Shown: positions 18,566-54,040 of the stretch, piece by piece
Layout: every line of letters begins with the position of its first letter
Numbering within the stretch: the stretch's first letter is position 1
Source of the DNA: a phage
Direction: 5' to 3' (one strand)
Length of the DNA: 54,480 nucleotides
Assembly (NCBI GenBank): GCA_018865545.1
Contig: GCA_018865545.1_3633.2
Position numbers and translations under genes: made by a program
The notes under the pieces: generated by a model
Told to the model about the DNA's origin: nothing
Databases searched by the model: none
Seen by the model: only the letters and a program-made list of their open reading frames with translations

Positions 18566-18598
18566 AATAAAAGCCCCATGCGGGGCTTTTATGTTTAT
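18565..18598. terminator. bidirectional rho-independent terminator
   Basis: AAAATAAAAGCCCCATGCGGGGCTTTTATGTTT: 7-bp GC stem flanked by A-tract and T-tract, between convergent genes. Confidence 0.65.
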
Positions 18599-19335
18599 TC
18601 AAAATCATCAACACCGCTATCGGTAAGGTTTTCTCTGCTCGAAGGTTTTGTCGAAAGAACTTGCTCAAGCAGAGAGGAAAATTTCTGCAAATTACTTATA
18701 GAGGAAGTCTCTGTTGCCATGGCAAGCATATCCACTTCTTTTTCGGTAGGTTGCGTCCAGTCTAGAAACATCTCTTTCATGTACAACGTTGATGTCCCTA
18801 TTGGTGTGGCGAGGTCAACCCTATCAGCATAGACCCAGAAAAGAACTTCTTTCTCTATACATACACACAAAGCAGCACCCAACGAGTATCCTGTAACGAG
18901 GGATGGATATCTTGCAACGAGGATCTCGACATTCAGGTCATCCCAGTGAAATACAACACCCAAACACTTCATATCCACAATGTCTTCCACTGCGGGTTTT
19001 AGCTCCTCATGGGAAGAAAGGGAGTCATAGTTAATATTCTTTATGAATTTAAGAACGTCTTGGCGGTTGTAGGCACAATCGTTATCACCTTGCTTCCAGT
19101 AACCCCAAAATGAAGTCGATAAATTCAACCAAAAACTTGCAGTTGTCCCTAATGTCTCAGCCAGTTTTTCAGCCACATCTTCTGATACTTCTTCCATGTT
19201 ATATAGGATAGTTCTTAACTTATTTACAGGTATACCAGATCTGTCGGCAAGATCATCCACACACCAACCTAATGGATCCAGATATTCGTGGATAATAACC
19301 TCCCCTGGTGACACTGGTGCTCTTTCTTTCTGCAT
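18595..19335 (-). CDS. HigA-like HTH (antitoxin family) protein fused to a C-terminal domain of unknown function
   Basis: Start at ATG19335 behind AAGGAGAG RBS; N-terminus PVSPGEVIIHEYLDPLGWCVDDLADRSGIPVNKLRTIL..AEKLAETLGTTASFWLNL matches the HigA/VapI HTH pattern; about 150 aa follow with no recognised motif. Confidence 0.55.
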   Translation of the reverse strand: MQKERAPVSPGEVIIHEYLDPLGWCVDDLADRSGIPVNKLRTILYNMEEVSEDVAEKLAETLGTTASFWLNLSTSFWGYWKQGDNDCAYNRQDVLKFIKNINYDSLSSHEELKPAVEDIVDMKCLGVVFHWDDLNVEILVARYPSLVTGYSLGAALCVCIEKEVLFWVYADRVDLATPIGTSTLYMKEMFLDWTQPTEKEVDMLAMATETSSISNLQKFSSLLEQVLSTKPSSRENLTDSGVDDFE

Positions 19336-19388
19336 TCTCTCTCCTTTCTCTCTACCAGAAAACCCTGCAAAGCAGGGTTTTGTTACTA

Positions 19389-19592
19389 TCAGCATTTAGG
19401 CGAGCATTTATCGCACGGGCATGAAATTCCGTGGAAACACAAACCTGTTCCGTCTTTCTTGACCCCTGTTCCACCACATTGGGGACAACTATCGTGTAAG
19501 CATTTTGTTTTTGTTGTCTCCTCTTTATCTTTATTAAAGAAGTTTTTCATAATCATTTTCTGTTGTTCAATCGTAAACATTTGCGTCCCCAA
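19389..19592 (-). CDS. small Cys-rich zinc-finger protein (CxxCxGxG type)
   Basis: ORF track; CLHDSCPQCGGTGVKKDGTGLCFHGISCPCDKCSPKC. Confidence 0.45.
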   Translation of the reverse strand: MGTQMFTIEQQKMIMKNFFNKDKEETTKTKCLHDSCPQCGGTGVKKDGTGLCFHGISCPCDKCSPKC

Positions 19593-19873
19593 AATCTTTC
19601 AAGTGCTTCTACCTCTTCCATGTTTGGGAAGATACCATAGAAACAGAACTTACCTTTAGAGAAGTACGGAATAAATACCCGTGCATCAGATGTTTGAAAC
19701 ATCTTGTCAAAATTTGGTAGCTTCAGGTGGGATTTTATAGCCTCTTTAATACTTTTATCCCATTGATGCTGCCATTTGCAGGCTTTTAGGTACTCACTAA
19801 TATTATAAGAACCTACTCTCCCCAAGATACTGGTGAGAAACTTTTTGTTTTTACGAATAATCTTCTTTTTCAC
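19553..19873 (-). CDS. hypothetical protein (paralog of upstream gene)
   Basis: ORF track; N-terminus MKKKIIRKNKKFL resembles MKKKLVRRNKLFL of 19851..20156. Confidence 0.4.
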   Translation of the reverse strand: MKKKIIRKNKKFLTSILGRVGSYNISEYLKACKWQHQWDKSIKEAIKSHLKLPNFDKMFQTSDARVFIPYFSKGKFCFYGIFPNMEEVEALERFWGRKCLRLNNRK

Positions 19874-20156
19874 TCAAAAACCTCGTTTCTTCAAACTGCT
19901 CTGGTGTCAATAAACTTGTTCCTACACGACTGCCATTGCCACACATAATGGGCACGGCAATCATGTGACTATCCTTTTCTGCATTACCTAAATCAAGGTA
20001 CTGCCCATAACGTTTGATAAGTCGAAGGCTCATTTTTGAATTAGCTAAAGCCCTTGTATTATAGAGATAATCCTCAAGGTACAAATGTAGAGCGTTTGCC
20101 ACCTTTAGAGATTTTGATAAGAATAATTTATTACGCCGGACCAGTTTTTTCTTCAT
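19851..20156 (-). CDS. hypothetical protein (paralog)
   Basis: ORF track. Confidence 0.4.
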   Translation of the reverse strand: MKKKLVRRNKLFLSKSLKVANALHLYLEDYLYNTRALANSKMSLRLIKRYGQYLDLGNAEKDSHMIAVPIMCGNGSRVGTSLLTPEQFEETRFLSEKEDYS

Positions 20157-20349
20157 GCAACCCTCGCTTGTGCCTGTACATTGCTAAAGGCCATACAGAA
20201 CTCACTATAAAGCATTTCCATGCCCAACCCCATGGAGTCTTTGGTGCATAAGCTCGTTCAAGCCATTTACTCTTTTCCATCTCTGCCGTATGTACAAACC
20301 ATACGGCAATATACAGTGCAACTATAATGTAGATAAAGCCATTAATCAT
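20131..20349 (-). CDS. small membrane protein
   Basis: ORF track; hydrophobic N-terminus. Confidence 0.35.
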   Translation of the reverse strand: MINGFIYIIVALYIAVWFVHTAEMEKSKWLERAYAPKTPWGWAWKCFIVSSVWPLAMYRHKRGLHEEKTGPA

Positions 20350-21403
20350 TCATCTTATCCCAACACATTTGTTGTGCTGTCATCAAAACATCGGCAGCAA
20401 AGTTAAGATCTGTTGTCTTCGGTAAATGCGTGTTCTTGTACAGAGTGTTACGAATATAGTCATCCTTCTCTTCTGCCCAAGCCAAGAGCTTCTCCAAAGA
20501 CCATGCACCATTCCTGATTGCAAGAAGCTCCTGAGCATCAGGTCTTTTTACTAAGACTTTACCTTCTGCTAGGATCTCCTCAGCCATACGCATCAATCTT
20601 ACCAAATGGATGGCATGTTTGCAATCGTACCCGTACTTTTCTTCTAAGTCATGCCGGACCGGATTTCTGTTTTCAACCCATGTCCAGTAGTTCTTATGCT
20701 TTTCCTTTGCTTGTTTATGGTCATCTGCTAGATACTTAACGATTAAAATTGGTTTACGTTTCTTATCCTCGCCAGAGAACTGTTCGTATGGGACTTTACG
20801 AATAGAGCCGTCAGAGTTAAACAAGCCAGCATTGTCGTGTGTTCCGATCACGCCATAGATATTATCACCCATTGGTAAAAAGACACACAACTTGTTAAGG
20901 TCATCCAGCATTTTCTGGAAGTCTTTGTGTTTTGTAAGATTATCATCCATCCACGAGTGTGTCAAGCGCATGAACTCTTTTTGTGTTGGTTGCTCTTTAG
21001 GCTGCGGGTTATTAATCCATTTATTATGGCCTTTGATACGCTTCAGTTGCGCCATCGCGTACCCAGAAAAAGTAAAAGCAACTTTGCTGGATAGGAGTTT
21101 TGGCGCTTGCTCGCGTAGGTACTCGTAAACATCTGAAGTTTGCAGAATGTCACCTCTATCAACAAACATAAGCTCGATGATGTTTGGGTTCATATCAACG
21201 AACAACTTCATGTAGTTTGTTAGCTCATACAGTTTACCATCCTCTTCATCAATAAGAGTCATTTCTCTGTCAACGAAAAACGGGGTAAGAATGCTTTTAG
21301 GCTCTGCACAATAAATTCCGCGAATATCCACATCAGATGTTGGTAAGTTAGTTCCATAGGCAATACTACCACTGTAGCAGCGCATTAGTTCTAGTTTCTT
21401 CAT
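20342..21403 (-). CDS. Pol-beta superfamily nucleotidyltransferase, function unknown
   Basis: N-terminal motif GSIAYGTNLPTSDVDIRGIY fits the G[SG]..D.D NTase signature. Confidence 0.55.
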   Translation of the reverse strand: MKKLELMRCYSGSIAYGTNLPTSDVDIRGIYCAEPKSILTPFFVDREMTLIDEEDGKLYELTNYMKLFVDMNPNIIELMFVDRGDILQTSDVYEYLREQAPKLLSSKVAFTFSGYAMAQLKRIKGHNKWINNPQPKEQPTQKEFMRLTHSWMDDNLTKHKDFQKMLDDLNKLCVFLPMGDNIYGVIGTHDNAGLFNSDGSIRKVPYEQFSGEDKKRKPILIVKYLADDHKQAKEKHKNYWTWVENRNPVRHDLEEKYGYDCKHAIHLVRLMRMAEEILAEGKVLVKRPDAQELLAIRNGAWSLEKLLAWAEEKDDYIRNTLYKNTHLPKTTDLNFAADVLMTAQQMCWDKMND

Positions 21404-21780
21404 TGTTGTACCTTTTTGTCTTTTCTTGCATTATCCCAAAAATTAAGGATATTTTGGTATCGGATCTTGTCTTCCATATATTCGGCCTCATCACGAAGAT
21501 CGCGCACATGGTCTATTAAGGCACACACTTCATCATGGTATGTTGTATCACTAGTGATGTGCTTAATCATACAAGATCCTGCTTTCCACTTTGAAAGTGA
21601 GTATCTCAGATTATCATCTTTCTCTGTGGGGAACGCGTCAACTAATATTTTTGCCTTATTACCTTTTATCTTTTGTACCACCCCTCTGCGCAATTCATTA
21701 TTACCCCAATAGATAAACACAGTATCACCAACAAATAACCTGGTTCCACTTGCGTCTCTCATTTTATGCCTCCAACACAA
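21400..21780 (-). CDS. hypothetical protein
   Basis: ORF track. Confidence 0.5.
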   Translation of the reverse strand: MCWRHKMRDASGTRLFVGDTVFIYWGNNELRRGVVQKIKGNKAKILVDAFPTEKDDNLRYSLSKWKAGSCMIKHITSDTTYHDEVCALIDHVRDLRDEAEYMEDKIRYQNILNFWDNARKDKKVQQ

Positions 21781-22173: not shown

Positions 22174-22671
22174 TTACTCACCTTTCAGCTTAAAACTTTT
22201 CAATGTTTTGATAAAGTTTTTCTCTGCTGGTGAGTAAGTGTGAACGAAACCTGTTTCTTCACAGGTGTAGGTATCATTAATCTCCATCGCATGTTGAGGC
22301 ATAAATGCACCTTCAGGAACAGGTTTATATTCTGGGTTGTAGATATATTCCGGTAACACAACAGCTACAGCAGTCAGTGCTCCATTCAGGGCTTCCCATT
22401 CTTCACGGAAAGCACCAACAGGGAGGTTTCCCACAGATTTAACCTGCGTAAGAAAATCTTGCAGGACGGATTGATAACCACCATTTAAAACAATAATGGT
22501 CTTATCTTTTTCTCTCCAGCATTTCAGCAAATAGTGCGCATCGAACTCTTCCGGTGTGTTTGCTGGGCGGTTATATGCCTCCATAAGTTCCACAATGGCA
22601 TGCGCTGATTGGATACCTGCATGGATACCGGAGATATATTGATTAACAATACAATACATTCTTGTTTTCAT
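22174..22671 (-). CDS. PTH2-like (peptidyl-tRNA hydrolase-like) protein, tentative
   Basis: GIQSAHA resembles the Q-x-S/A-H-A motif of PTH2 enzymes; weak. Confidence 0.35.
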   Translation of the reverse strand: MKTRMYCIVNQYISGIHAGIQSAHAIVELMEAYNRPANTPEEFDAHYLLKCWREKDKTIIVLNGGYQSVLQDFLTQVKSVGNLPVGAFREEWEALNGALTAVAVVLPEYIYNPEYKPVPEGAFMPQHAMEINDTYTCEETGFVHTYSPAEKNFIKTLKSFKLKGE

Positions 22672-23228: not shown

Positions 23229-24485
23229 TTAGAATAACATATCTCTGCTGATTGCTTTACGAATAGCATCAATACGGGCTACTCGCACAGCTTCACCAAT
23301 CTCTTTACCCTTCTTACCTTTTTCCAGAAGGGGTTTTGTTATAGCTTTAGAATCAACTTTTGTCATAGCATCGTAGGCTTCCAACAAAATATGACCCTGA
23401 GGATAAGGTTTATGTCTAAAATCACCACCTCTTCCTTTAGCATCACAATAACACGCATCTGCAAGTGTGTAAACCTTTATTTTCTGATCAGCTTGTCCAG
23501 CAGCTTCAAATATTTTCATGATGCTTTTTGGTTTCAAACCGTTGTTACCATCTCTGGGGGAGATGGCGTGCACTTTTGTGTGATTTTCCGCAACATATTT
23601 TGCCGTGTCACGATAGATATTATAAATCTTCAACCTTTCACACAAGGATTGGATAACATCTACACCAGCTTTCTCATGACCATGAAGATTACCATTGTCC
23701 TTGTAAGTTATAGCTTTGCCAAAATCATGGCACAGCACAGCAAACTTGGTCAGTGGATCAGCCCCTAATTCATCAGCAACCCGTAACGCTAGAATTGTAT
23801 GGGTGTAAGCATCCCCTTCTGGGTGATGTTCTTTAGGTTGTTGCACACGACGTAGGGCTTCCAGTTCAGGAAGTTCGCCAATACGTCCCATATTGACAGC
23901 AAAAGATCTGAAATAACCACTCTTTAAGGCTTTCAACATTTCCTTCCATTTACGCTCGGCGCTTATTTCTGCCAAAGAGTGTCGGTTGTCATAAGCCAGT
24001 TTAAAAGTTTCTGGATGGATATGCCACTCTTCCCCAAGCTGGGCTTTAAATCTAAACAGGCGTAGAATACGTAATGGATCTTCAATAAATGCCTGCGATG
24101 TATGACGTAATGTTTTAAGTCCTAAATCAACTTGACCACCAAAAGGATCAATAATCTCACCACTGTCAACATCCATCGCCATGGAGTTGATGGTTAGATC
24201 TCTACGTGCCAAATCCTCTTCCAGTGTTACATCTGGACTAAAGCATACCTCAAATCCTTTATGGCCTTCGCCTGTTTTTCTTTCTGTGCGTGCAAGAGCG
24301 TACTCTTCTCTTGTTTCTGGGTGAAGATAAACTGGAAAAGATGCGCCAACTTGTGTGAACCCTCTTTTCAACATCTCTTCATGCGTAGCGCCAACAACAA
24401 CATAATCACGGTCTGATAATTCACGACCCAGCAATTTATCTCTTACTGCACCGCCTACTAAGTATACCTTCATTTCTTCGCCCAC
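23229..24485 (-). CDS. cca: tRNA nucleotidyltransferase (CCA-adding enzyme) with HD domain
   Basis: N-terminus MKVYLVGGAVRDKLLGRELSDRDYVVVGAT..YALARTERK closely resembles bacterial Cca; HD-like region ALLHDIGK-type (LCHDFGK). Confidence 0.85.
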   Translation of the reverse strand: MGEEMKVYLVGGAVRDKLLGRELSDRDYVVVGATHEEMLKRGFTQVGASFPVYLHPETREEYALARTERKTGEGHKGFEVCFSPDVTLEEDLARRDLTINSMAMDVDSGEIIDPFGGQVDLGLKTLRHTSQAFIEDPLRILRLFRFKAQLGEEWHIHPETFKLAYDNRHSLAEISAERKWKEMLKALKSGYFRSFAVNMGRIGELPELEALRRVQQPKEHHPEGDAYTHTILALRVADELGADPLTKFAVLCHDFGKAITYKDNGNLHGHEKAGVDVIQSLCERLKIYNIYRDTAKYVAENHTKVHAISPRDGNNGLKPKSIMKIFEAAGQADQKIKVYTLADACYCDAKGRGGDFRHKPYPQGHILLEAYDAMTKVDSKAITKPLLEKGKKGKEIGEAVRVARIDAIRKAISRDMLF

Positions 24486-24796
24486 GTATTCATATAATTA
24501 ACAATATCTTTTACGGTTCTCTTTCCGTCCAGTGGATAAACCATGTCATCGCTCATCCCACCGTGTTTTAGCATTGCTACCAGTCTAGTATATACCTCTT
24601 TTGGTCTTTTGCAAGTTCTTTTCTTCCATTTATGACCGTCTGGGGAGTACTCCTTATCTTCAAGAGAGATATGAAGGATGTCCCCTATAAACTCTTTAGC
24701 CTGTGTGCTGTAAAGTGGACGGTGGAATATGTAGAATTTCATTGCTTGCTCCTTTGTTGTAATAACAATATCAGTGCAAGCCACCTGTGTCAACAC
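24470..24796 (-). CDS. hypothetical protein
   Basis: ORF track. Confidence 0.45.
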   Translation of the reverse strand: MLTQVACTDIVITTKEQAMKFYIFHRPLYSTQAKEFIGDILHISLEDKEYSPDGHKWKKRTCKRPKEVYTRLVAMLKHGGMSDDMVYPLDGKRTVKDIVNYMNTWAKK

Positions 24797-24831
24797 ATAA
24801 AGAAAAACCCGCTAAAAAGCGGGTTAATCTC

Positions 24832-37782: not shown

Positions 37783-39669
37783 TCAACCTGCCACAACATT
37801 GTTGGGAACTAGTTGGCGGTATTGTACCCACCCACGTAGATTTCCTGACCACATATTTCCTTTTCTATCCATATGTGTCACGCCGTCACTTGCCTGTCCA
37901 TCCCACCACAATGAAGCCTCATTCTCCAACATAGGTGTTGCAACATGCTCAAAAGGAGATGCGTGTACCTTATCACCACTTGTTAGCTTTTTATAGATAT
38001 CAAGGGCTTTATCCTTAGTGTTGTTAAGCACGCGATACGAGACTTGTGCACAACAAGACACAGAAATAGCAATTGCCTCATCAACACGTAGCATCACAGG
38101 CTCGTTGTTCTCATCTAAAACACAATACCCATGAAATTCTCCAACATCCTCACCAACCTCAACTGTGTAGAGGTGCTCTACATATGGGGTGTGCCACTGA
38201 CCAGGTTCTAATAGCTCAGGTACAGACTCATCCACAGCTTGTTTCATGAGAGATGCTAGTTTATGGATCGTCGGGTCTGCATCTCCATCTGCACGAAGAT
38301 GGAAAAAATTATTCCAATCCGTAGCAGTAACAACAGTTTTCATCCTCTGGAACGGTTCCAGTAAGCGATTTGCCACCTGCTTGTGGTATCCCGCTTGTGA
38401 GTATGCTTCGGCAAAACGTGATGCACTTAAAGCCGCCAATTTCCACCAATCCTCTGGGGAATATCCAGCATCTATTTCAGCATTGTGATTACCATCATCT
38501 TGCATACCAGGTTTATTCTTACCAAATTGAACAGGCATGGCAGGATTTTTTCGTACTTGCTCAATCATCTTAGAGATTGGAATTGCTCTGCTGCTCATAG
38601 CATTCCTGCTAAACAGTCTATGCGTCATAAGTTCACAGTTCCCACTGATAAATACGACACCTTCCCTTCGAACAACCACGTAGGAGGTGTCTACACTTAC
38701 ACAATACACCTTCCCTACATAGTCCTCATACTCGAAGATATCTTTATCCTGCCTTAGACTAATGTAGTTCGTAACTTTAAATGAGCATTTATACAGAGAG
38801 CCATACTTACGAATATTCACAGAGTCACCATTCAGGTGAGCTAACACCTGAATTTGGTTAATCAGTGTTTTGGATGTGGTGTTATACTCCATGTTGTCAA
38901 TATTGCCGTCTGAGAGTAGCAATGCTCTCTTAAATAAGCGGTACTGCTCCTTATTTAACCCTCTGATATATTTTGGTAATTTTTTCTCCCCTTCTCCAGT
39001 GTAACATGCTTCTGTTAATGGGTTTTTATTAAAACTGATAACTATATCGTCCCCATATATAGAGGTGCTATATTCGTATCCACACTCTTCAAGGATACGT
39101 GTAACTTCCTGTACCTTCCGAGACTTTTTAAAATGGAAGTTTGCCTTATTCCCCTTTTCTGGGGTATGTCCATCAGCAGCAAACCAAACACAAAATTCAA
39201 TCTCCGCATCAGAAAGGTCACACTTTGCATTCATTACCCCAGACTGCTCGATACGTAATGTTCCATAGTCTCCTACAAGTTCCTCAGCAAGAATCGTCTT
39301 ACTTACAAATTTACCCCCAGTAGTCCTTTTTTTCGTAAGGACTCGATGCTTGTCTGTAACAAGCATGGGGAACTTCTTCTTGTTCAGAGATACCATCCGA
39401 TGACGACCTTCGTTCTCTATGTGTGCGGATGGGGTTACAAAGCTAATAGCTCCTGTTGTATCATCATACTGTGCTACCTTAGCATTGAGTGCAAATACTT
39501 CCCTGAAAGATCTGAACTCTGGCAATTCCGAGTTAATCTGACTGAGTATTTCTGTCTTCTCGTCAAAGCAGTGAATAATGCGGGGGTATTCCAACTCAAA
39601 AGTGGTAATTCTGATACCTTGTGGGGAAATACTGTCAGCTACGATATGTACAGAGATCTGATTATTCAT
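37783..39669 (-). CDS. thyX: ThyX-like flavin-dependent thymidylate synthase interrupted by a LAGLIDADG intein
   Basis: ThyX signature HRLFSRNAMS (RHR-x7-S with T for the first R), NFFHLRADGDAD and HASPFEH; insertion CFDEKTEIL...VVFISGN with LAGLIDADG-like CVWFAADGHT and LLLSDGNI. Confidence 0.55.
   Translation of the reverse strand: MNNQISVHIVADSISPQGIRITTFELEYPRIIHCFDEKTEILSQINSELPEFRSFREVFALNAKVAQYDDTTGAISFVTPSAHIENEGRHRMVSLNKKKFPMLVTDKHRVLTKKRTTGGKFVSKTILAEELVGDYGTLRIEQSGVMNAKCDLSDAEIEFCVWFAADGHTPEKGNKANFHFKKSRKVQEVTRILEECGYEYSTSIYGDDIVISFNKNPLTEACYTGEGEKKLPKYIRGLNKEQYRLFKRALLLSDGNIDNMEYNTTSKTLINQIQVLAHLNGDSVNIRKYGSLYKCSFKVTNYISLRQDKDIFEYEDYVGKVYCVSVDTSYVVVRREGVVFISGNCELMTHRLFSRNAMSSRAIPISKMIEQVRKNPAMPVQFGKNKPGMQDDGNHNAEIDAGYSPEDWWKLAALSASRFAEAYSQAGYHKQVANRLLEPFQRMKTVVTATDWNNFFHLRADGDADPTIHKLASLMKQAVDESVPELLEPGQWHTPYVEHLYTVEVGEDVGEFHGYCVLDENNEPVMLRVDEAIAISVSCCAQVSYRVLNNTKDKALDIYKKLTSGDKVHASPFEHVATPMLENEASLWWDGQASDGVTHMDRKGNMWSGNLRGWVQYRQLVPNNVVAG
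38638..39570 (-). mobile_element. intein with LAGLIDADG homing-endonuclease domain (about 311 aa, boundaries approximate)
   Basis: Starts with Cys in block-A-like CFDEKTEIL, ends ...SGN immediately before Cys; inserted 5 residues before the ThyX catalytic motif. Confidence 0.5.
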
Positions 39670-39989: not shown

Positions 39990-40183
39990 CTTCCTCTCTT
40001 TTTTATCTTAAACTTTGTTTGCGGATCCATACCCGCTTTAAAAACAAGATATCTTGTAAGAATATCATTACACATATCACTGGTAGCTTTAAAAGAGATT
40101 AAGAAGTCCTCATCCTCTGTGAAAACTTCCACCCAATCTCCATATTTTACTACAAAATCACCTTTTGTGCATCGTCTAATCAT
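39986..40183 (-). CDS. hypothetical protein
   Basis: ORF track. Confidence 0.4.
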   Translation of the reverse strand: MIRRCTKGDFVVKYGDWVEVFTEDEDFLISFKATSDMCNDILTRYLVFKAGMDPQTKFKIKKRGR

Positions 40184-40785
40184 GCTATGTCTAAAACAAA
40201 ATCACGTATTGTATACCAATCATCTGTTTCAAGGTCTAGGGATGTTTTTAATTCTTCAGACTGATCATAAGGTGTTTTAAATTTAATTTTAATAACCTCT
40301 GGACCAAACTGATTAAGGAACTCATTCCTATCATCAATAATAACATCAACATCTACCCCAGCTTTATGCTTTGTTGCATAGAAAGCATGACCGGAACCAG
40401 GCTCTAAGCTGAAAAACTCTTCTGTTTCTCTTTTTAGAAAGCGCACTTTAGATGAAAAATGACCTTTCATACAATAAGAAACAAAATGATTAAAATGACC
40501 AGCTTTAGCCCATGCAGCTACTGCTTCCACTGCACCGGGGAGAGGCTTCAACTTATCGTAAAGATAAGGATCCTCCCAAAACTCATAAGGACTAAGCTGA
40601 TGCACCTTCGCAGGTGGGAAATACTTAGAAACATTGTAATACAGCATACCTTGTGGATTTGGTGGTGGTAATGATAAATCCATTTTAACACCATAAACCT
40701 TTTCCAACCACTCAATCCAAGGTGTCCCAGAATCAACAAATGTCAAATCTACATCAATTCCGATCTTAAGCGTATTCACCTTCAA
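40180..40785 (-). CDS. HAD-like hydrolase (putative 5'-deoxyribonucleotidase)
   Basis: IGIDVDLTFVD fits HAD motif I (DxDxT); C-terminal DVDVIIDDR resembles motif IV. Confidence 0.4.
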   Translation of the reverse strand: MKVNTLKIGIDVDLTFVDSGTPWIEWLEKVYGVKMDLSLPPPNPQGMLYYNVSKYFPPAKVHQLSPYEFWEDPYLYDKLKPLPGAVEAVAAWAKAGHFNHFVSYCMKGHFSSKVRFLKRETEEFFSLEPGSGHAFYATKHKAGVDVDVIIDDRNEFLNQFGPEVIKIKFKTPYDQSEELKTSLDLETDDWYTIRDFVLDIA

Positions 40786-46647: not shown

Positions 46648-47538
46648 TTATTTACCTGTAGGTAATGTTACAAACGGGGCTTGTGCTCCACTAGTCATAT
46701 ACACAGGTGTTACACCATTCCATTTATTAATTGCTTCAAGCTGCATAATCTCTGGATTTTTACGCAGAGCAGCACCACGTAGTTCAATAGATTCTGCATC
46801 ACCTTTGGCAATCAAGATTTTAGCATCTGCTTCGCCTTGTGCTTGGAGTCGTTTAGACTCAGCCTCGCCACGAGCCGCCTCAATACGTTTCTGGGCTTCA
46901 GCTTTCACTTGCTGAATTTCGTTTTCACGAAGCAGTGCTTTTTGTGTCGCTTCGATTTTATCATTAATGGAAGCAGTCACCTTTGGCGGATACACAAGAT
47001 CGTCAGTATAAGAAAGTTTCACAAGCACAATACCAACAGGATCAAGTTTTTGTTTCAGATGCTTGGTTACGCTCTCAAGCAGTTGTGTTTTTCCATCACC
47101 AGTCAGTGTACCGATATCCATTGAACCAGCTTCTTTGATCAAAGCATCAGAGATATTCTGGCGAATGTTTACCTCTGTAATTTCTTGTACACCTTTACGG
47201 TACGTCTGGAAAATAGTCGTTACTTTAGAACGATCAACATAATATTCAACACCAATTTTCGCAGAAACTGTCATAGAGTCTTTTGTCTGGAAATTGAATG
47301 GTTGGTCATAGTTATGCAACTGGTTAAAAGTCGGGAACTGATAAATCTCTTCGTTCCAAGTCAGCCAGTACTTACCTACCCCAACCTCTTGTTGCTGGAC
47401 ACCTTTTTCATCACCGTACAGATCAACTTTAACGCCAACGTAACCTGCTGGAACGGTTGCACGCTCACAACCTGTGAGACCAATTGCAGAGACTGCAAGA
47501 ATACCTGCAAAAATAACTCGTTTAATAGATTTAAACAT
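46648..47538 (-). CDS. SPFH/band-7 (prohibitin-like) lipoprotein
   Basis: Lipobox-like LTGC near the N-terminus; C-terminal coiled coil EIQQVKAEAQKRIEAARGEAESKRLQAQGEADAKILIAKGDAES typical of band-7 proteins. Confidence 0.7.
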   Translation of the reverse strand: MFKSIKRVIFAGILAVSAIGLTGCERATVPAGYVGVKVDLYGDEKGVQQQEVGVGKYWLTWNEEIYQFPTFNQLHNYDQPFNFQTKDSMTVSAKIGVEYYVDRSKVTTIFQTYRKGVQEITEVNIRQNISDALIKEAGSMDIGTLTGDGKTQLLESVTKHLKQKLDPVGIVLVKLSYTDDLVYPPKVTASINDKIEATQKALLRENEIQQVKAEAQKRIEAARGEAESKRLQAQGEADAKILIAKGDAESIELRGAALRKNPEIMQLEAINKWNGVTPVYMTSGAQAPFVTLPTGK

Positions 47539-48404: not shown

Positions 48405-49094
48405 TTACACTTTAATAATCGGTTCAACAAAGGTAATTGGTTTCATAATTTTACCATTACCATCCATAAAGGCAACACGTTCACCGACCTGAACATGGAT
48501 TACAGAATTATAGCGTCCTTTTGAACGGCGTTCAATCTCTTTGCATTCAAACTCCAACATCTCCAGTTCTTTATCCTTGTAGTCAGGATATTTAACAAGT
48601 AGTTGTGTGATTGTTGGGAACTTAGAGTCGTTAGAATTAAGAACCTCTTCCATATTATACCCAAGATTGATATCCAATTTATAGCATAAAGCCACAACTT
48701 GTTTCAAAATCTCAGCATAATCAGAGATTTTCAACTTATCTTTATGTACCAAGTCAAGCAAACTACCGATTTGCAACTCAACCGTGTCTGAGGGAACCAT
48801 GCATGACTCCCATTTTTCAGTGTCCCACTGCACCAAACGCAAAGCGTAAGAGCTTACGACAAAAAGATCACAGGCTGCATCAATAACCGCTGCCTTGTCG
48901 GATGATGATAAGGCTTCAATAAGCTCAGAAAGCTCCTCTTTAATAAGATTTGTTTGTAGTTTAATATCTGTTGACATTCCTCCACGACCAATCCTTGCTA
49001 CCTCATTCCATTTGGCAACACGATGACCATATGCAATCATGTTATCAGGCTTGCTCATGGTTTCAAGTGTGGAATACATATTTTTTAAATTCAT
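48405..49094 (-). CDS. MazG-like nucleotide pyrophosphohydrolase (tentative)
   Basis: IKEELSELIEAL...DAACDL resembles the MazG EExxE...ExxD motif. Confidence 0.4.
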   Translation of the reverse strand: MNLKNMYSTLETMSKPDNMIAYGHRVAKWNEVARIGRGGMSTDIKLQTNLIKEELSELIEALSSSDKAAVIDAACDLFVVSSYALRLVQWDTEKWESCMVPSDTVELQIGSLLDLVHKDKLKISDYAEILKQVVALCYKLDINLGYNMEEVLNSNDSKFPTITQLLVKYPDYKDKELEMLEFECKEIERRSKGRYNSVIHVQVGERVAFMDGNGKIMKPITFVEPIIKV

Positions 49095-49487: not shown

Positions 49488-50777
49488 TTAATATATAGGA
49501 TCCCACGTCAAAGAATCTACCTCACGAACACATTTGCCAACAGGAAATTGCGGAACACCGTCATCGGTCCTTGCTTGGTATGTAAAAGTTATATACTTGC
49601 CGATAAGTTTTTTCATATTCTCTTGTGAGCGTTCTTCGTGTGTGCCTCTCATCTTACAGTTAAATTGTGTACCATCCTTCTCAGCACACAACAGGACACC
49701 TTCTCCATTCTTATCCTCAAAGGAATCAAGAACTCTGGCCTCACCATCCTGAAACAATTTCCACTTTTGAAGATCAGACGATCTTTGTCCAAACTCATAC
49801 TTTCCGTGAAAGTTCCTTATTACAACACCCTCATAACCTGCTTCCATAAACTCCTTGATGAGCATTTTAACACGATCCTCACCAGACACTATTGCTCCGT
49901 GCACCACTTTAATCAGGTTATAAGGCCATGTATATTCAGAGACTTTCTGTAAATTATTAAACCTACACTTGTTTGTGTCAGAAGACATCCATGGTGTGTC
50001 ATCTTCCGAAGGGATATCGAAAATATGATATTCTAAGTCTAAACTTGAATAACCACAATACTTATTAATATTTTTCTCTGGTTTCTTTGTGATAGGATGT
50101 TCTAACCCTTCGGAGTCTTTCCAAAATTCATCACCATTGTTAATTGCTTTTTCAAATCGCTTTATGTCTGATTGATAGTCTTTTTCTATCTCACACTCTA
50201 TCTCTTCTGGTGTTCTCCATTTCTTAGCCAAAGAGACTATTTTCTGGAGACTTAACCCATGAATATACAACTCACCATCAAACATTTTCAACCCTGTCTT
50301 TTTGGCTAGCTTAGACATCTGATCAAGCAATTGGCCTTGTACAGGATATGTTTTATTGCCACGACTATTAAACACAGGTACACCATCATCACCAACAAGA
50401 ACAAGTGCTCTGACACCATCGAGTTTTGGTTGAACATGCACAGGGTACACTAAAGAGCTTTTCCTTTTAATAGCATCATGTGCAAGCATTGGTGAGAAAT
50501 CTTGTGTTTTTGTAAGATCATCCTTTGATACACGATACCCAAGGCGTACTTGTTTTTCCCACTTAGATTTTGCCTCCAAAACAGCTTGTTCTGTATCAGT
50601 TGTCTCATTTTTCTTACCGATGTTTTTGGCAAAGCATTTTGTGCGTTTATACTGCATTTTACCGTTTTCTTTACCAAACTCAACAACAGTTTCTGATCCA
50701 TCTACCCACACATTCCACACTTGATATGTACCATCCCTGTTTATGGCGTACAGTGTTGGGAGGTTATTTTCAAGCAT
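49488..50777 (-). CDS. ATP-dependent DNA ligase
   Basis: Motif I KLDGVR, motif III FDGELYIHG, motif IV EGVVIRN, motif V DLQKWKLF; start set to ATG50777 behind GCGAGGT RBS. Confidence 0.7.
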   Translation of the reverse strand: MLENNLPTLYAINRDGTYQVWNVWVDGSETVVEFGKENGKMQYKRTKCFAKNIGKKNETTDTEQAVLEAKSKWEKQVRLGYRVSKDDLTKTQDFSPMLAHDAIKRKSSLVYPVHVQPKLDGVRALVLVGDDGVPVFNSRGNKTYPVQGQLLDQMSKLAKKTGLKMFDGELYIHGLSLQKIVSLAKKWRTPEEIECEIEKDYQSDIKRFEKAINNGDEFWKDSEGLEHPITKKPEKNINKYCGYSSLDLEYHIFDIPSEDDTPWMSSDTNKCRFNNLQKVSEYTWPYNLIKVVHGAIVSGEDRVKMLIKEFMEAGYEGVVIRNFHGKYEFGQRSSDLQKWKLFQDGEARVLDSFEDKNGEGVLLCAEKDGTQFNCKMRGTHEERSQENMKKLIGKYITFTYQARTDDGVPQFPVGKCVREVDSLTWDPIY

Positions 50778-51555
50778 TAAATACCTCGCTTGTGACAACA
50801 GATTTTCCTTCAAGGTGATTCTCTACCAACTCGATAAGTTTTTGGTTGCTGAATGCTTCAACTGCTCCACAGCGCATTTGGTACACACCATATTTATCAT
50901 ACTGCTCTTGTTCAAAGTAATTAATCGCTGGGTTTATTACAACGAGTTTAATACCTCGTTTTGCGATTGCATGTAGCAATTCCCAGTTAAAGTCGATAAC
51001 TTGGTTAGAGCAGCCAACCAGAAGTACAAGGTCTTGAGTATTCAAGTCATCAAGCATGGTAAACATGTCCTGATAAAGTGGTGCATTCTCACCGAAAAAT
51101 ACCACATTTGGCTTGCACCACCAGTAATCATCAGGATCAACAGCCGTATACCCAACATCAATCACACGCTTAGGAAACTCTTCACCATTCTGTACAACAA
51201 GCTCTTTTAGAAAACCATGCACATGGAGAATATCTTTCTTTTCAATGCCAGCGCGTTCAAGCAGATCGTCAACATTTGTTGTAAGATTACGTACTTGACC
51301 AGGATAACGCTTATACCATTCTGCAACACGCAGATGTGCCATGTTGGGATGGACAGTCTTCAATTCCTCACGACGTTTGTTATAAAATTCGTGTGTTTTG
51401 TGATAGAAATTGCCACGAAATGCATGAATATTACATACTTCTTCAAGATCATATTCGTCCCAGAGGGCTTTACCTGAAGAAGTATCTGTACGGAATGTAC
51501 GAATACCGCTTTCTGTTGACATACCTGCACCACTAATCACAAGTAATCGACGCAT
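50770..51555 (-). CDS. Sir2-family NAD-dependent deacetylase / ADP-ribosyltransferase
   Basis: LVISGAGMSTESGIRTFR matches the Sir2 GAGxSxxSGIPxFR motif. Confidence 0.75.
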   Translation of the reverse strand: MRRLLVISGAGMSTESGIRTFRTDTSSGKALWDEYDLEEVCNIHAFRGNFYHKTHEFYNKRREELKTVHPNMAHLRVAEWYKRYPGQVRNLTTNVDDLLERAGIEKKDILHVHGFLKELVVQNGEEFPKRVIDVGYTAVDPDDYWWCKPNVVFFGENAPLYQDMFTMLDDLNTQDLVLLVGCSNQVIDFNWELLHAIAKRGIKLVVINPAINYFEQEQYDKYGVYQMRCGAVEAFSNQKLIELVENHLEGKSVVTSEVFNA

Positions 51556-51563
51556 ATAACCAC

Positions 51564-51971
51564 CTATTGTAATTTTAAAGAGTTACGTAAACGTGCTTCT
51601 TGACGATCACGAATAAACTGCGGGACATCATGAATGCTTTCGTTACCATGATAATTTTCCACAACTACAGATGTTACATCATAGCAGTAGTTTTCTGCTA
51701 AGTCAAGATAAGGTTTCAACTCTTTCGCAGAAGTTGTTGTGTTTGAAACAATAATCTTTTCAACTTCATTCTGCATGTGGAGTTCTACTTTGTCACGACA
51801 CCATTGATGAGCTTTGTGGACATTTTCTTCTTTCCACTCATACACACCGTCTTCGGTGTAATGAAATTGGTCAGCTTCACACACAGGCCAACGACCATCA
51901 TCAGACAACTCTTTAGCAAGAGTTGATTTTCCTGACCCAGAGACACCACGTAAAATAAATAACTTTTTCAT
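51564..51971 (-). CDS. P-loop polynucleotide 5'-kinase-like protein
   Basis: MKKLFILRGVSGSGKSTLAKEL resembles the N-terminus of the T4 Pnk kinase domain. Confidence 0.55.
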   Translation of the reverse strand: MKKLFILRGVSGSGKSTLAKELSDDGRWPVCEADQFHYTEDGVYEWKEENVHKAHQWCRDKVELHMQNEVEKIIVSNTTTSAKELKPYLDLAENYCYDVTSVVVENYHGNESIHDVPQFIRDRQEARLRNSLKLQ

Positions 51972-51981
51972 CAGTTTTCCT

Positions 51982-52314
51982 TTAGTATTGGTGGCGGTAT
52001 AATTTTATACCAAGAATATTTTCAAAATATTCTTTCGCCAACATGAATTTGTTCACAGCAGATGGGTTAGAGCTATGTACGTGAATTTCTTTAAGATTCA
52101 TAAACTTACCATCATGAAGCTCACGTTCAACATAGAGGAAAGCATCGTAACCTTCCTCATCAGAACCCAAATCATTATCAAAATGAATTGAATCAATGTC
52201 ACTATCACTCATAAATTTTAGTAATGAGTAAAAGCTAGAGAGATTCTTACACCATAAAGCATTAGGGTAGCCATAATCTACTGGATTTCGTAGATCATCC
52301 AACCATAGTTTCAA
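51982..52314 (-). CDS. hypothetical protein
   Basis: ORF track; between the kinase and RNA ligase genes. Confidence 0.45.
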   Translation of the reverse strand: MKLWLDDLRNPVDYGYPNALWCKNLSSFYSLLKFMSDSDIDSIHFDNDLGSDEEGYDAFLYVERELHDGKFMNLKEIHVHSSNPSAVNKFMLAKEYFENILGIKLYRHQY

Positions 52315-53243
52315 ATTGTGCCTCCGAAAAAATCCTCGATGATTTCACGACGGAATTGTTCATGCAAACATTCCCAATGTTCTTTAGAATAGTTATCACG
52401 CAAGTAGTTTAAAAGGTTATAATACTCTTCGTCAACTTTCTTCTTAGCTTCTTCTGGGTTTCCCCAAATCATATCCCACTTGTTCTTACCGCCACGCATC
52501 AAAAATTTCTTCGCCAAATAGTGTGGTGATTTTATCTTCAAGAGAAGATCTTGCTGTCCTGTAGCATCACGTACAACAAACCCTTCATGTTTGCATTCTT
52601 TAGACATTTTCAGGATGTCTGAAAAGTGCATATTTATGTAAATCTCTGGTCGTTTAAAACCGAACTCTTTTGCGATAAGATCCAGAGCTTTTTCACTAAG
52701 CATAGAAGTTAATTTGTTTTTATGAAATCGGACACCAATCAAATACACACCTGCCTTTTCTGGTACAATGTGTGGGTCTGAAGGAGCGCAAATCTCAAAG
52801 ATAAATGTTGTCTTTGGTTCTTCCACACATGATAACAACATTGGCAAATTAGTACATTCTTCCATGATCATACCTTTTGCAAGTTTTGCAAAATCGGAAT
52901 CTAAAGTTCCTGTTGTTGAAACAATTAGCTCACCATTGTATGAGCTTACTGCTGCCATGAAGCCATTAACTTTACGTGCTGCATTCACAACCATATCTTT
53001 TGGAAGATCAGTACCGTTCTCTAAATGATTGAAAATCTTTGTAAAAGGCCAAACAATAATGTTGTCATCACTGTCCACAACCATACCACGGCAATCAAGT
53101 AAGCGACTGTCTTGATCCCACAAGTTTTCCCAGAAAACTTTGTTACTGTATTTCAAAACAGACAAACCTTTAAACTCACCACTGGTATAAGTCTTCTTTT
53201 TGACAAGGCCTTTTGCTACTAAATCTTCAACATTAAATTTCAT
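52311..53243 (-). CDS. RNA ligase (covalent nucleotidyltransferase, KxNG type)
   Basis: Motif I KVNGF, motif III IFEIC, motif IV EGFVVRD, motif V LLLKIKSPHY; KxNG rather than KxDG favours an RNA ligase. Confidence 0.55.
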   Translation of the reverse strand: MKFNVEDLVAKGLVKKKTYTSGEFKGLSVLKYSNKVFWENLWDQDSRLLDCRGMVVDSDDNIIVWPFTKIFNHLENGTDLPKDMVVNAARKVNGFMAAVSSYNGELIVSTTGTLDSDFAKLAKGMIMEECTNLPMLLSCVEEPKTTFIFEICAPSDPHIVPEKAGVYLIGVRFHKNKLTSMLSEKALDLIAKEFGFKRPEIYINMHFSDILKMSKECKHEGFVVRDATGQQDLLLKIKSPHYLAKKFLMRGGKNKWDMIWGNPEEAKKKVDEEYYNLLNYLRDNYSKEHWECLHEQFRREIIEDFFGGTI

Positions 53244-53440
53244 TTGTCTTCACCGTCACTATTGTATGATTGTTTATTAAATGACTCAATTATACATGTT
53301 GATCGTCTTGCGTCAACAGATTGGCTTGTTAAATCTTTAGCAACAACCAGCTTTTCCACATCATCTTTTTTGATGGATCCGTAAGCACCAGAATCCATCA
53401 TGAAGAATATTTTATCTTCTGTTATCTTGTGTATTTTCAT
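53240..53440 (-). CDS. hypothetical protein
   Basis: ORF track. Confidence 0.35.
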   Translation of the reverse strand: MKIHKITEDKIFFMMDSGAYGSIKKDDVEKLVVAKDLTSQSVDARRSTCIIESFNKQSYNSDGEDK

Positions 53441-53461
53441 TCATAAAATCTCAATGATTAT

Positions 53462-54040
53462 TCAATGCCCATCAGCAGTGAAAACGTCTTTTTCCATACA
53501 CATTTGGTATGCTTCTGGCAAACCCAAAATTCTCCCATGTACATCCCAACCAACATCAAGAATCCGTCCTTTCGCACTGTAAGATCCGTGGCAATGACCA
53601 TGCAAGAACACAGACCCATAGTGAGATTTATTCCACGCTGCAAACGGGTAATGGCTCATACAAATTTTTTGTTCATAATCGTTAAATTCGTAATAATCGC
53701 ACACATCATGACCACGTTTTTTGAATGTTTTAATCGCATCAAAATTGTCATGATTACCTTTGACAAGGACGATATGCCCAACAAGCTCATCAAGAATTTC
53801 TTCAAGTCTTTTAATAACTTGCTTGCCATGACCGAAACAGAAATCACCAAGCACAAAAGTCACAGTATCGGCATCTGCGCCGTGGTTAAATTTCACTGTG
53901 AGGTCTTGGTTCATTTGTTCAACGGTTTTGTACAAATCACCACGAAAACGTTTTGAACTCTCAAAGTTAAGGATGTTTTTATGCCAGTAATGTAAATCAG
54001 ATGTTACACGGTATTTGGTTCCCATTTCTCTCTCCCACAC
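53462..54040 (-). CDS. calcineurin-like metallophosphoesterase (Ser/Thr phosphatase family)
   Basis: Motifs SDLHY (DxH), LGDFCFGHG (GD), VKGNHD (GNHD), LHGHCH. Confidence 0.75.
   Translation of the reverse strand: MWEREMGTKYRVTSDLHYWHKNILNFESSKRFRGDLYKTVEQMNQDLTVKFNHGADADTVTFVLGDFCFGHGKQVIKRLEEILDELVGHIVLVKGNHDNFDAIKTFKKRGHDVCDYYEFNDYEQKICMSHYPFAAWNKSHYGSVFLHGHCHGSYSAKGRILDVGWDVHGRILGLPEAYQMCMEKDVFTADGH

Follow-up and report, generated by a model that had tools for sequence, protein, structure and literature searches.

Which acceptor is served by the nucleotidyltransferase (NTase) that a large Escherichia coli phage encodes at positions 20342-21403, minus strand, of the 54,480-nucleotide contig GCA_018865545.1_3633.2 (GenBank assembly GCA_018865545.1; this whole stretch of analysed DNA is called the window here)? 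The earlier note on this DNA had recognized a Pol-beta-fold NTase of unknown specificity. The fold call proved right, since catalytic residues and family match agree on it, and by its sequence the protein is a member of the RlaP family, belonging to the phage NrdC.11-type clade and not to the canonical RlaPs, and is thus not of a wholly unknown kind. Most likely, with a probability that we put at about 60%, it is an active RlaP-family enzyme of the NrdC.11 type that transfers nucleoside monophosphates (NMPs) to the 3'-OH of RNA, above all of damaged tRNA. The specificity is narrowed in this way because the protein matches Pfam family PF10127, bacterial RlaPs have been assayed, and the gene lies in a tRNA-end gene block of a phage that carries RNA ligases; the label of unknown specificity therefore overstated the ignorance.

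The open reading frame (ORF) is real and intact. It starts with ATG and encodes 353 amino acids (aa) followed by a stop codon; the start ATG overlaps the TGA of the upstream ORF (ATGA), which ends in ...CAA CAA TGA, and the final 8 nucleotides overlap the ATG of the downstream ORF, so that the gene is packed at both ends into an operon-like array. The window is 91.6-93.6% identical in nucleotide sequence to the Escherichia phages Av-05 (genus Avunavirus), TH18, 18-1-2, 19-1-2 and 24-2-1, and is part of a Vequintavirinae (Avunavirus-like) genome of a large E. coli phage. In tblastn the NTase was 98.9% identical to its Av-05 counterpart, the orthologue there being Av05_0062, annotated 'nucleotidyltransferase', and a 97%-identical protein in NCBI (P0001) bears the name 'DNA polymerase beta superfamily protein'.

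The RlaP family, named by Burroughs and Aravind, is represented in Pfam by PF10127, and the window protein passed this model with 48.7 bits against a gathering cutoff of 23 (E=1e-12). The match covers aa 7-123 only, corresponding to profile positions 22-140 of 249, and the phrog_388 family ('nucleotidyltransferase') aligned over aa 5-351 with E=8.5e-77. The statement that some 250 aa lack a recognized motif thus holds for the Pfam alignment but not for phrog_388, nor for an invariant C-terminal motif described below. At E<=1e-3, a word-indexed search returned 3154 homologues and an exhaustive search against 50%-identity representatives returned 5452, which puts the observation well past chance; a precomputed PF10127 assignment was present on all 120 homologues among the matches listed, bar one chimeric entry. 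Together with a predicted structure, these matches identify 20342-21403 (minus strand) as an RlaP-family (NrdC.11-type) NTase gene.

Catalytic competence is suggested by the N-terminus of the protein (...YSGSIAYGTNLPTSDVDIRG...), which carries the signature G12-S13-IAYGTNLPTS-D24-V-D26 (21326-21370, minus strand). The NTase motif reported earlier is present, its spacing as read from the sequence being GS-x10-DxD instead of GS-x9-DxD. A third acidic residue, D55 (21239-21241, minus strand), was located by conservation and by the structural model just before strand 56-60. G12, S13, D24 and D26 are invariant in an alignment of 44 sequences (A1), and in a profile alignment of 269 homologues reaching down to about 32% identity they were found in 262/262, 262/262, 261/262 and 263/263 sequences, respectively; the position of D55 was acidic in all 265 (D in 253, E in 12), and N72-P73-N74-x2-E77 was nearly invariant. 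Loss of the catalytic aspartates among homologues was looked for and not seen, and because G12, S13, D24, D26 and D55 are kept in essentially all of the 269 homologues, the enzyme is probably active. Going by the general pattern of Pol-beta NTases, D55 would be the third metal-binding carboxylate and act in catalysis, and D24, D26 and D55 may bind two divalent metals, probably Mn2+ as in the Pseudomonas enzyme PfRlaP, for which 'three strictly conserved aspartic acids' have been described (PMC12776372).

An AlphaFold2 (AF2) model built with alignment A1 was confident (mean predicted local distance difference test (pLDDT) 95.7; predicted template modelling score (pTM) 0.86), and with secondary structure assigned by DSSP it resolved, all on the minus strand, an N-terminal Pol-beta NTase domain of alpha/beta type with alternating strands and helices, the helices being long (aa 1-135; 20999-21403), which is the only part that hhalign aligns to canonical bacterial RlaPs, a variable beta-rich insert (aa ~136-225; 20729-20998) and a C-terminal helical domain (aa 226-353; 20345-20728). 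The insert, with model strands at 145-150, 173-179, 182-187 and 220-224, is the least conserved block of A1, and the helical domain closes with a long helix (333-352). Within this domain the motif W242-x3-R246-N247-x2-R250-x3-E254-x5-D260-x-K262-x3-H266-x2-R269 (20597-20680, minus strand) is invariant both in A1 and in the 269-homologue set, and forms the probable substrate- and NTP-binding helix. Inteins of ~325-355 aa interrupt 13/150 representatives (carriers include P0121, P0122, P0124, P0127, P0132, P0159, P0191, P0199, P0201, P0219, P0252 and P0263; one intein has a LAGLIDADG domain), always at one site between D260 and residue 261 (GYD/C...[HQ]GN/[TCS]KHAMH, with slashes at the junctions; codons D260/C261 lie at ~20621-20626 of the window), which marks the D-x-K motif as functional core.

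Against predicted viral structures, Foldseek retrieved many phage 'nucleotidyltransferases', including those of Bacillus phages BCD7 and Mater and the T4-like Shigella phage pSs-1, and models of phage RlaP-type proteins were matched with template modelling (TM) scores of 0.5-0.78 of target length. The structure prediction and fold comparison proposed in the earlier note thus yielded a confident two-domain NTase model with its matches among phage proteins. Against the PDB, Foldseek gave no match at E<1e-3, the similarities being those of a generic Pol-beta fold (TM 0.2-0.3, identity <=17%), and sequence searches of the PDB with the single sequence and with the 44-sequence profile retrieved only troponin T noise and MntA (E=0.044), in a PDB set from which the PfRlaP structure was absent.

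The relation to canonical RlaPs was delimited with a profile of these proteins, which are ~260 aa each (A2). Aligning A1 with A2 by hhalign gave a probability of 97.3% (E=2.2e-11), restricted to aa 5-158. The window protein shares with canonical RlaPs the PF10127 score, an N-terminal NTase domain of the GSxAYG...DxD plus NPNxxE type, a modelled succession of NTase domain and helical C-domain, and a place in genomes that carry RNA ligases. It differs in that the alignment is limited to aa 5-158 and its C-terminal half has no detectable sequence similarity, in being ~90 aa longer, with the beta-rich insert and its own W/RN/R/E/D-K-H-R motif, and in that its gene is not part of an rtcBA operon. 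In contrast, NrdC.11 of the T4-type phage RB16 (328 aa) matched both the N and the C blocks of the A1 subfamily profile (65 and 29 bits, the latter including the W...R...D-x-K helix) and showed no match to A2. Likewise, from Bacillus phage 0524phi7-1 a Herelleviridae protein of 262 aa (XRM24449.1, annotated 'RlaP RNA repair protein') matched A1 in two blocks (85 and 78 bits) at positions 9-131 and 249-346 only. These two matches place the window protein in the phage NrdC.11-type clade.

Within this clade the resemblances are uneven. The Bacillus phage protein is 35% identical over aa 230-341 and represents a minimal form of the same subfamily; it lacks the ~115-aa insert between the blocks, and its gene sits among those for ribonucleotide reductase, thioredoxin and DNA polymerase. 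NrdC.11 of T4, itself a member of PF10127 (PMC12776372), is likewise encoded by a large lytic myovirus; however, identity to T4-type NrdC.11 is ~26-27%, tblastn aligned only aa 6-125, and the nrdC-mobD region in which nrdC.11 lies contains no CCA-adding enzyme. T4 tolerates laboratory deletion of the segment from nrdC.11 to mobD.3 (PMC9825161), which is what one would expect if the gene were an accessory one for counter-defence.

The nature of the reaction can be approached through the bacterial relatives. PfRlaP and PaRlaP of Pseudomonas are encoded between rtcB and rtcA (rtcB-rlaP-rtcA operons) and have been characterized in a preprint of December 2025 (Carruthers, Fatma and Huang, 2025; PMC12776372). 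Among E. coli macromolecules they label RNA alone, E. coli proteins not being substrates; in vitro they add one to two NMPs or deoxynucleoside monophosphates (dNMPs) to an RNA 3'-OH and never to DNA acceptors, they favour a mimic of cleaved tRNA and Mn2+, and they restore the aminoacylation of tRNA-Asp lacking one anticodon-loop nucleotide (PMC12776372).

The immediate surroundings of the NTase gene in the window point to the ends of tRNA as well. A class II CCA-adding tRNA nucleotidyltransferase with an HD domain is encoded at 23229-24485 (minus strand; PF01743 E=1.9e-21, HD E=2.6e-8, PF12627 E=1.3e-6, phrog_2244 E=1e-143), and read along the strand it is followed by small membrane proteins, a PTH2-like hydrolase, a DUF7205 protein and the NTase, tightly packed. 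The hydrolase gene (phrog_3668; 22174-22671, minus strand) matched PF01981 at E=0.005, below the cutoff, and 10/26 members of its family match that model (best E=6.6e-7), one being named 'aminoacyl-tRNA hydrolase' in UniRef; a profile search of the PDB with this neighbour found nothing. It appears to be a divergent peptidyl- or aminoacyl-tRNA hydrolase fold. The DUF7205 gene (phrog_2112; 21400-21780, minus strand; PF23835 E=7e-36) lies directly upstream of the NTase with the ATGA overlap and occupies this position in 10 related loci as well; its product is apparently translationally coupled to the NTase and a possible partner subunit.

The CCA-adding enzyme, 1.8 kb upstream, belongs to the Pol-beta superfamily like the NTase and performs template-free addition to RNA 3' ends in tRNA repair, and synteny of its gene with that of the NTase extends across Vequintavirinae and to Vibrio phage D181. 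The two enzymes nevertheless belong to separate families, and the phage already owns a genuine CCA enzyme. A second CCA-adding enzyme was accordingly considered and rejected, since Pfam found no PF01743 (PolyA_pol head), PF12627 or HD match in the NTase protein.

The arrangement recurs in other phages. Klebsiella phage KpS8 has the CCA enzyme, the hydrolase and then the NTase as in the window, and Vibrio phage D181, whose NTase is 47% identical, keeps this order and adds genes for Thg1, an Rnl1-type ligase and Pnkp in the next 6 kb. Related loci were counted in IMG/VR (80 loci; upstream neighbours were counted among the 39 large ones), and, down to an NTase identity of 46%, a CCA enzyme lay <=10 kb upstream of the NTase in 17/39 large loci and a PTH2-like gene upstream in 13; in one locus the CCA gene is immediately upstream of the NTase (L025) and in another the CCA and hydrolase genes are directly adjacent (L065). 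Of all the evidence from gene context, the gene order of D181 together with the CCA/PTH2-like synteny speaks most strongly for a function in tRNA repair. The tRNA-repair context of these relatives agrees with a comparative-genomic account according to which RlaP is distributed across jumbo phages in the way that RNA ligases are (PMC7824862). The metagenomic contexts of P0131, P0146, P0177, P0144 and P0253 were uninformative, consisting of short contigs or unannotated small ORFs.

A likely sealing partner is present in the window itself, where a T4 Rnl1-type RNA ligase is encoded at 52311-53243 (minus strand; PF09511 E=7.4e-18, 65.6 bits against a cutoff of 28.3). Its orthologues across Vequintavirinae are annotated RNA ligase 1, and GenBank record OK136181 says only 'hypothetical protein'. 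Beside it, both on the minus strand, are genes for a metallophosphoesterase-like protein, a candidate 3'-end healing enzyme (53462-54040; PDB 1xm7 E=7.7e-7; motifs GDFCFGH, GNHD and GHCHG), and for a 135-aa P-loop kinase-like protein, a candidate 5'-kinase (51564-51971; GVSGSGKST, weak PDB matches to gluconokinase-type kinases). The region 51564-54040 is thus a probable heal-and-seal RNA cassette in which the healing functions would fall to these two proteins; a 110-aa ORF on the same strand also lies among the three genes. In close relatives an Rnl2-type ligase (PF09414) stands beside a Macro-domain gene, that of phage 24-2-1 being 96% identical to the Av-05 ligase and located on a 79.5-kb GenBank record; tblastn with the Av-05 Rnl2-type ligase found no match within the window.

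With these components, repair could proceed as follows. A host ribotoxin or exonuclease would cut and then trim a tRNA, and the NTase, acting without a template, would use NTPs to extend the 3'-OH of the damaged RNA by one or a few NMPs, restoring the missing nucleotide before phage enzymes complete the repair. The basic C-terminal helix (R246, R250, K262, H266 and R269) may bind both the NTP and the end of the RNA inside the interdomain cleft. Completion could be left to the Rnl1- and Rnl2-type ligases with healing by the phosphoesterase and kinase, or to the CCA-adding enzyme. The outcome would be that host tRNA-targeting toxins are countered by the NTase together with the CCA/HD enzyme, the PTH2-like hydrolase and the RNA ligases. 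We infer RNA as the acceptor and tRNA as the physiological target, and likewise the metal requirement and the roles of the insert and the C-terminal motif; the substrate could be a gap in the anticodon loop, the acceptor end or, with lower probability, DNA.

Among these, the acceptor end gives rise to a bolder version of the proposal, which we hold tentatively and as clearly less probable than general repair of damaged tRNA. The NrdC.11-type clade (phrog_388) would then be a distinct enzyme, directed to the tRNA acceptor end by its own C-terminal domain and insert, and would form with the CCA/HD enzyme and the PTH2-like hydrolase a conserved module of three genes that strips and rebuilds tRNA 3' ends which host toxins have blocked, over-trimmed or modified; over-trimmed here would mean that the loss extends past the discriminator base, out of reach of CCA enzymes. 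If so, phages would possess a counter-defence pathway that has so far gone undescribed, and the fusions of relatives to DnaQ-like exonucleases (see below) would be trim-and-refill versions of the same activity.

Several observations weigh against RNA 3'-end transfer as the function. Similarity to the assayed Pseudomonas enzymes is confined to the N-terminal 150 aa of the window protein, so that by sequence the acceptor specificity could differ, and hhalign of the C-terminal half (aa 226-353 or aa 140-353) against canonical RlaP gave a probability of ~1%. Homology of this half to canonical RlaP is not claimed, the resemblance of KHAxHLVRLL to the KKYFYVLRPLL helix being one seen by eye only. 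The Rnl1-type ligase of the window is ~31 kb away from the NTase and not in the same operon. In 58/80 IMG/VR loci (L030-L096; 46-51% identity) the NTase lies between gp32/UvsX and UvsW/PolIII-alpha, in the order gp32, UvsX/RecA, NTase, two small ORFs, UvsW helicase and a PolIII-alpha fragment; this group consists of environmental phages, partly jumbo-sized, whose replication and recombination setting is unlike that of the window. Lastly, six relatives with 32-41% identity (P0144, P0163, P0165, P0179, P0196 and P0232; L008, L097, L098 and L099) are C-terminally fused to a DEDDh exonuclease that is DnaQ-like and passes TIGR00573.

The last two observations are the core of an explanation that we regard as improbable yet deserving of discussion, namely that the enzyme acts on DNA ends in replication or recombination, for instance by adding or restoring 3' nucleotides on DNA or primers in concert with a proofreading exonuclease. 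DnaQ is a DNA proofreading subunit, inteins, common in this family, are typical of DNA-metabolism enzymes, Herelleviridae and T4-like phages place the gene among nrd, thioredoxin and polymerase genes, and PfRlaP accepts dATP as a donor (PMC12776372). However, neither PfRlaP nor PaRlaP extended DNA acceptors at all (PMC12776372). Since phage gene blocks are inherited as units, the 58 loci may count as a single lineage, and two members of that lineage (L083 and L058) carry an Rnl1-like ligase gene 2.6 kb downstream of the NTase. The fusion to a DEDDh exonuclease is a trim-and-add architecture, and one such fusion (P0232, L099) has an RNA ligase, a MYG1 exonuclease and an AAA_33 kinase within 10 kb, whereas another adjoins Nmad3 and NADAR genes. 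A 631-aa bacterial protein (P0253; L006 and L007) joins a canonical RlaP (Pfam E=1e-94) in tandem to an NrdC.11-type NTase that is 35% identical to that of the window; it stands by itself in a chromosomal context, with no RNA-repair neighbours. Moreover, the immediate neighbours of the NTase in the window are tRNA enzymes and not replication genes.

Still less probable, and in our view distinctly unlikely, is nucleotidylylation of a protein or small molecule, either AMPylation as by MntA, GlnE and DrrA or modification of the antibiotic type, or the synthesis of a signalling or decoy oligonucleotide against host defence. The protein does resemble MntA, ANT(4'), LinB and HalB, its best structural neighbours in the PDB, in its Pol-beta core fold and in having a helical partner domain, and weak matches below threshold were obtained with NTP_transf_2 (PF01909; 16.9 against 21 bits, aa 12-27 only) and, as the only NCBIfam model, with MntA (NF047752; 12.7 against 60 bits). 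Yet these similarities are of the generic kind described above for Foldseek, the gene context gives no sign of a toxin partner or effector, and the assayed RlaPs did not modify E. coli proteins (PMC12776372). An aminoglycoside NTase (KNTase-like) was rejected on a Foldseek match of E=0.02 (TM 0.2-0.26) and the PF01909 score under its cutoff, an MntA-type antitoxin on the score of the MntA model, and a CD-NTase-like signalling or defence NTase because the PADLOC defence models had no match to the protein. Nothing in the profile hidden Markov model, Foldseek and PADLOC searches thus favours the antibiotic, protein or signalling-nucleotide targets that the earlier note had allowed for. That the protein is an inactive, structural or regulatory NTase remnant is hardly credible, as no point in its favour was found, the catalytic G/S/D/D/D residues are kept in >99% of the homologues, the fold is predicted with confidence and inteins are maintained at a conserved site.

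Transcription signals, identified by consensus scan only, weakly suggest a unit from the CCA enzyme through the NTase, running from 24793-24765 to 18592-18567. A promoter-like site, TTGACA-17-TATTGT with a TG (24765-24793, minus strand), is a possible unit start and is preceded by a terminator-like hairpin (24806-24825), and a strong bidirectional terminator-like hairpin with an 11 bp stem and a T run (18567-18592) is a possible unit end; promoter-like sites in the region were not enriched over shuffled sequences. Just downstream of the NTase are two overlapping small ORFs on the minus strand, 19553-19873 (106 aa) and 19851-20156 (101 aa), which both match phrog_12809, share an MKKK..RKNK/RRNK..FL N-terminus and look like a tandem duplication. 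Within 18567-19395, the array closes with the gene for a HigA-like helix-turn-helix (HTH) protein of 266 aa (phrog_1381, 'plasmid antitoxin with HTH domain'), after which comes the hairpin at 18567-18592. No tRNA genes were found beside the NTase in the window or in 32 related loci; Av-05 encodes 14 tRNA genes.

Elsewhere in the window, the minus strand between 46648 and 51555 carries auxiliary genes for an SPFH/Band-7 protein (46648-47538), a MazG-like pyrophosphohydrolase (48405-49094), an ATP-dependent DNA ligase (49488-50813) and a Sir2-family protein (50770-51555), the last of which immediately adjoins the RNA-repair cassette. A nucleotidase of the NT5C type is encoded at 40180-40785. A 628-aa ORF (37783-39669, minus strand) corresponds to the 'putative thymidylate synthase' gene of TH18; at more than twice the length of an ordinary ThyA, its product may be a fusion protein or some other enzyme. 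Genes run on the plus strand to ~13 kb and on the minus strand from ~14 kb, and the GC skew flips near 13-16 kb. The content of the window matches that of separate 54-kb records in GenBank for the phages 18-1-2, 19-1-2 and 24-2-1; the remainder of the 24-2-1 genome forms a second record of 79.5 kb, and TH18 is a single record of 133.9 kb.

Bacteria commonly attack phages by cleaving tRNA or modifying its 3' end, and large phages respond by encoding tRNAs as well as enzymes of RNA repair. Of this response, the step taken by RlaP-type enzymes is understood least, namely the restoration of nucleotides removed by 'smart' ribotoxins such as RloC. The annotation 'nucleotidyltransferase' can now become 'RlaP-family RNA 3'-end nucleotidyltransferase (NrdC.11-like), putative', and the window gene offers a tractable example of the phage NrdC.11-type clade from an E. 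coli phage. Its likely partners, the CCA/HD enzyme, the PTH2-like hydrolase and the Rnl1-type ligase with the phosphoesterase and the kinase-like protein, are in the same genome, to which an Rnl2-type ligase may be added on the evidence of close relatives. With these partners in one genome, the pathway could be reconstituted and knockouts tested on defined defence systems.

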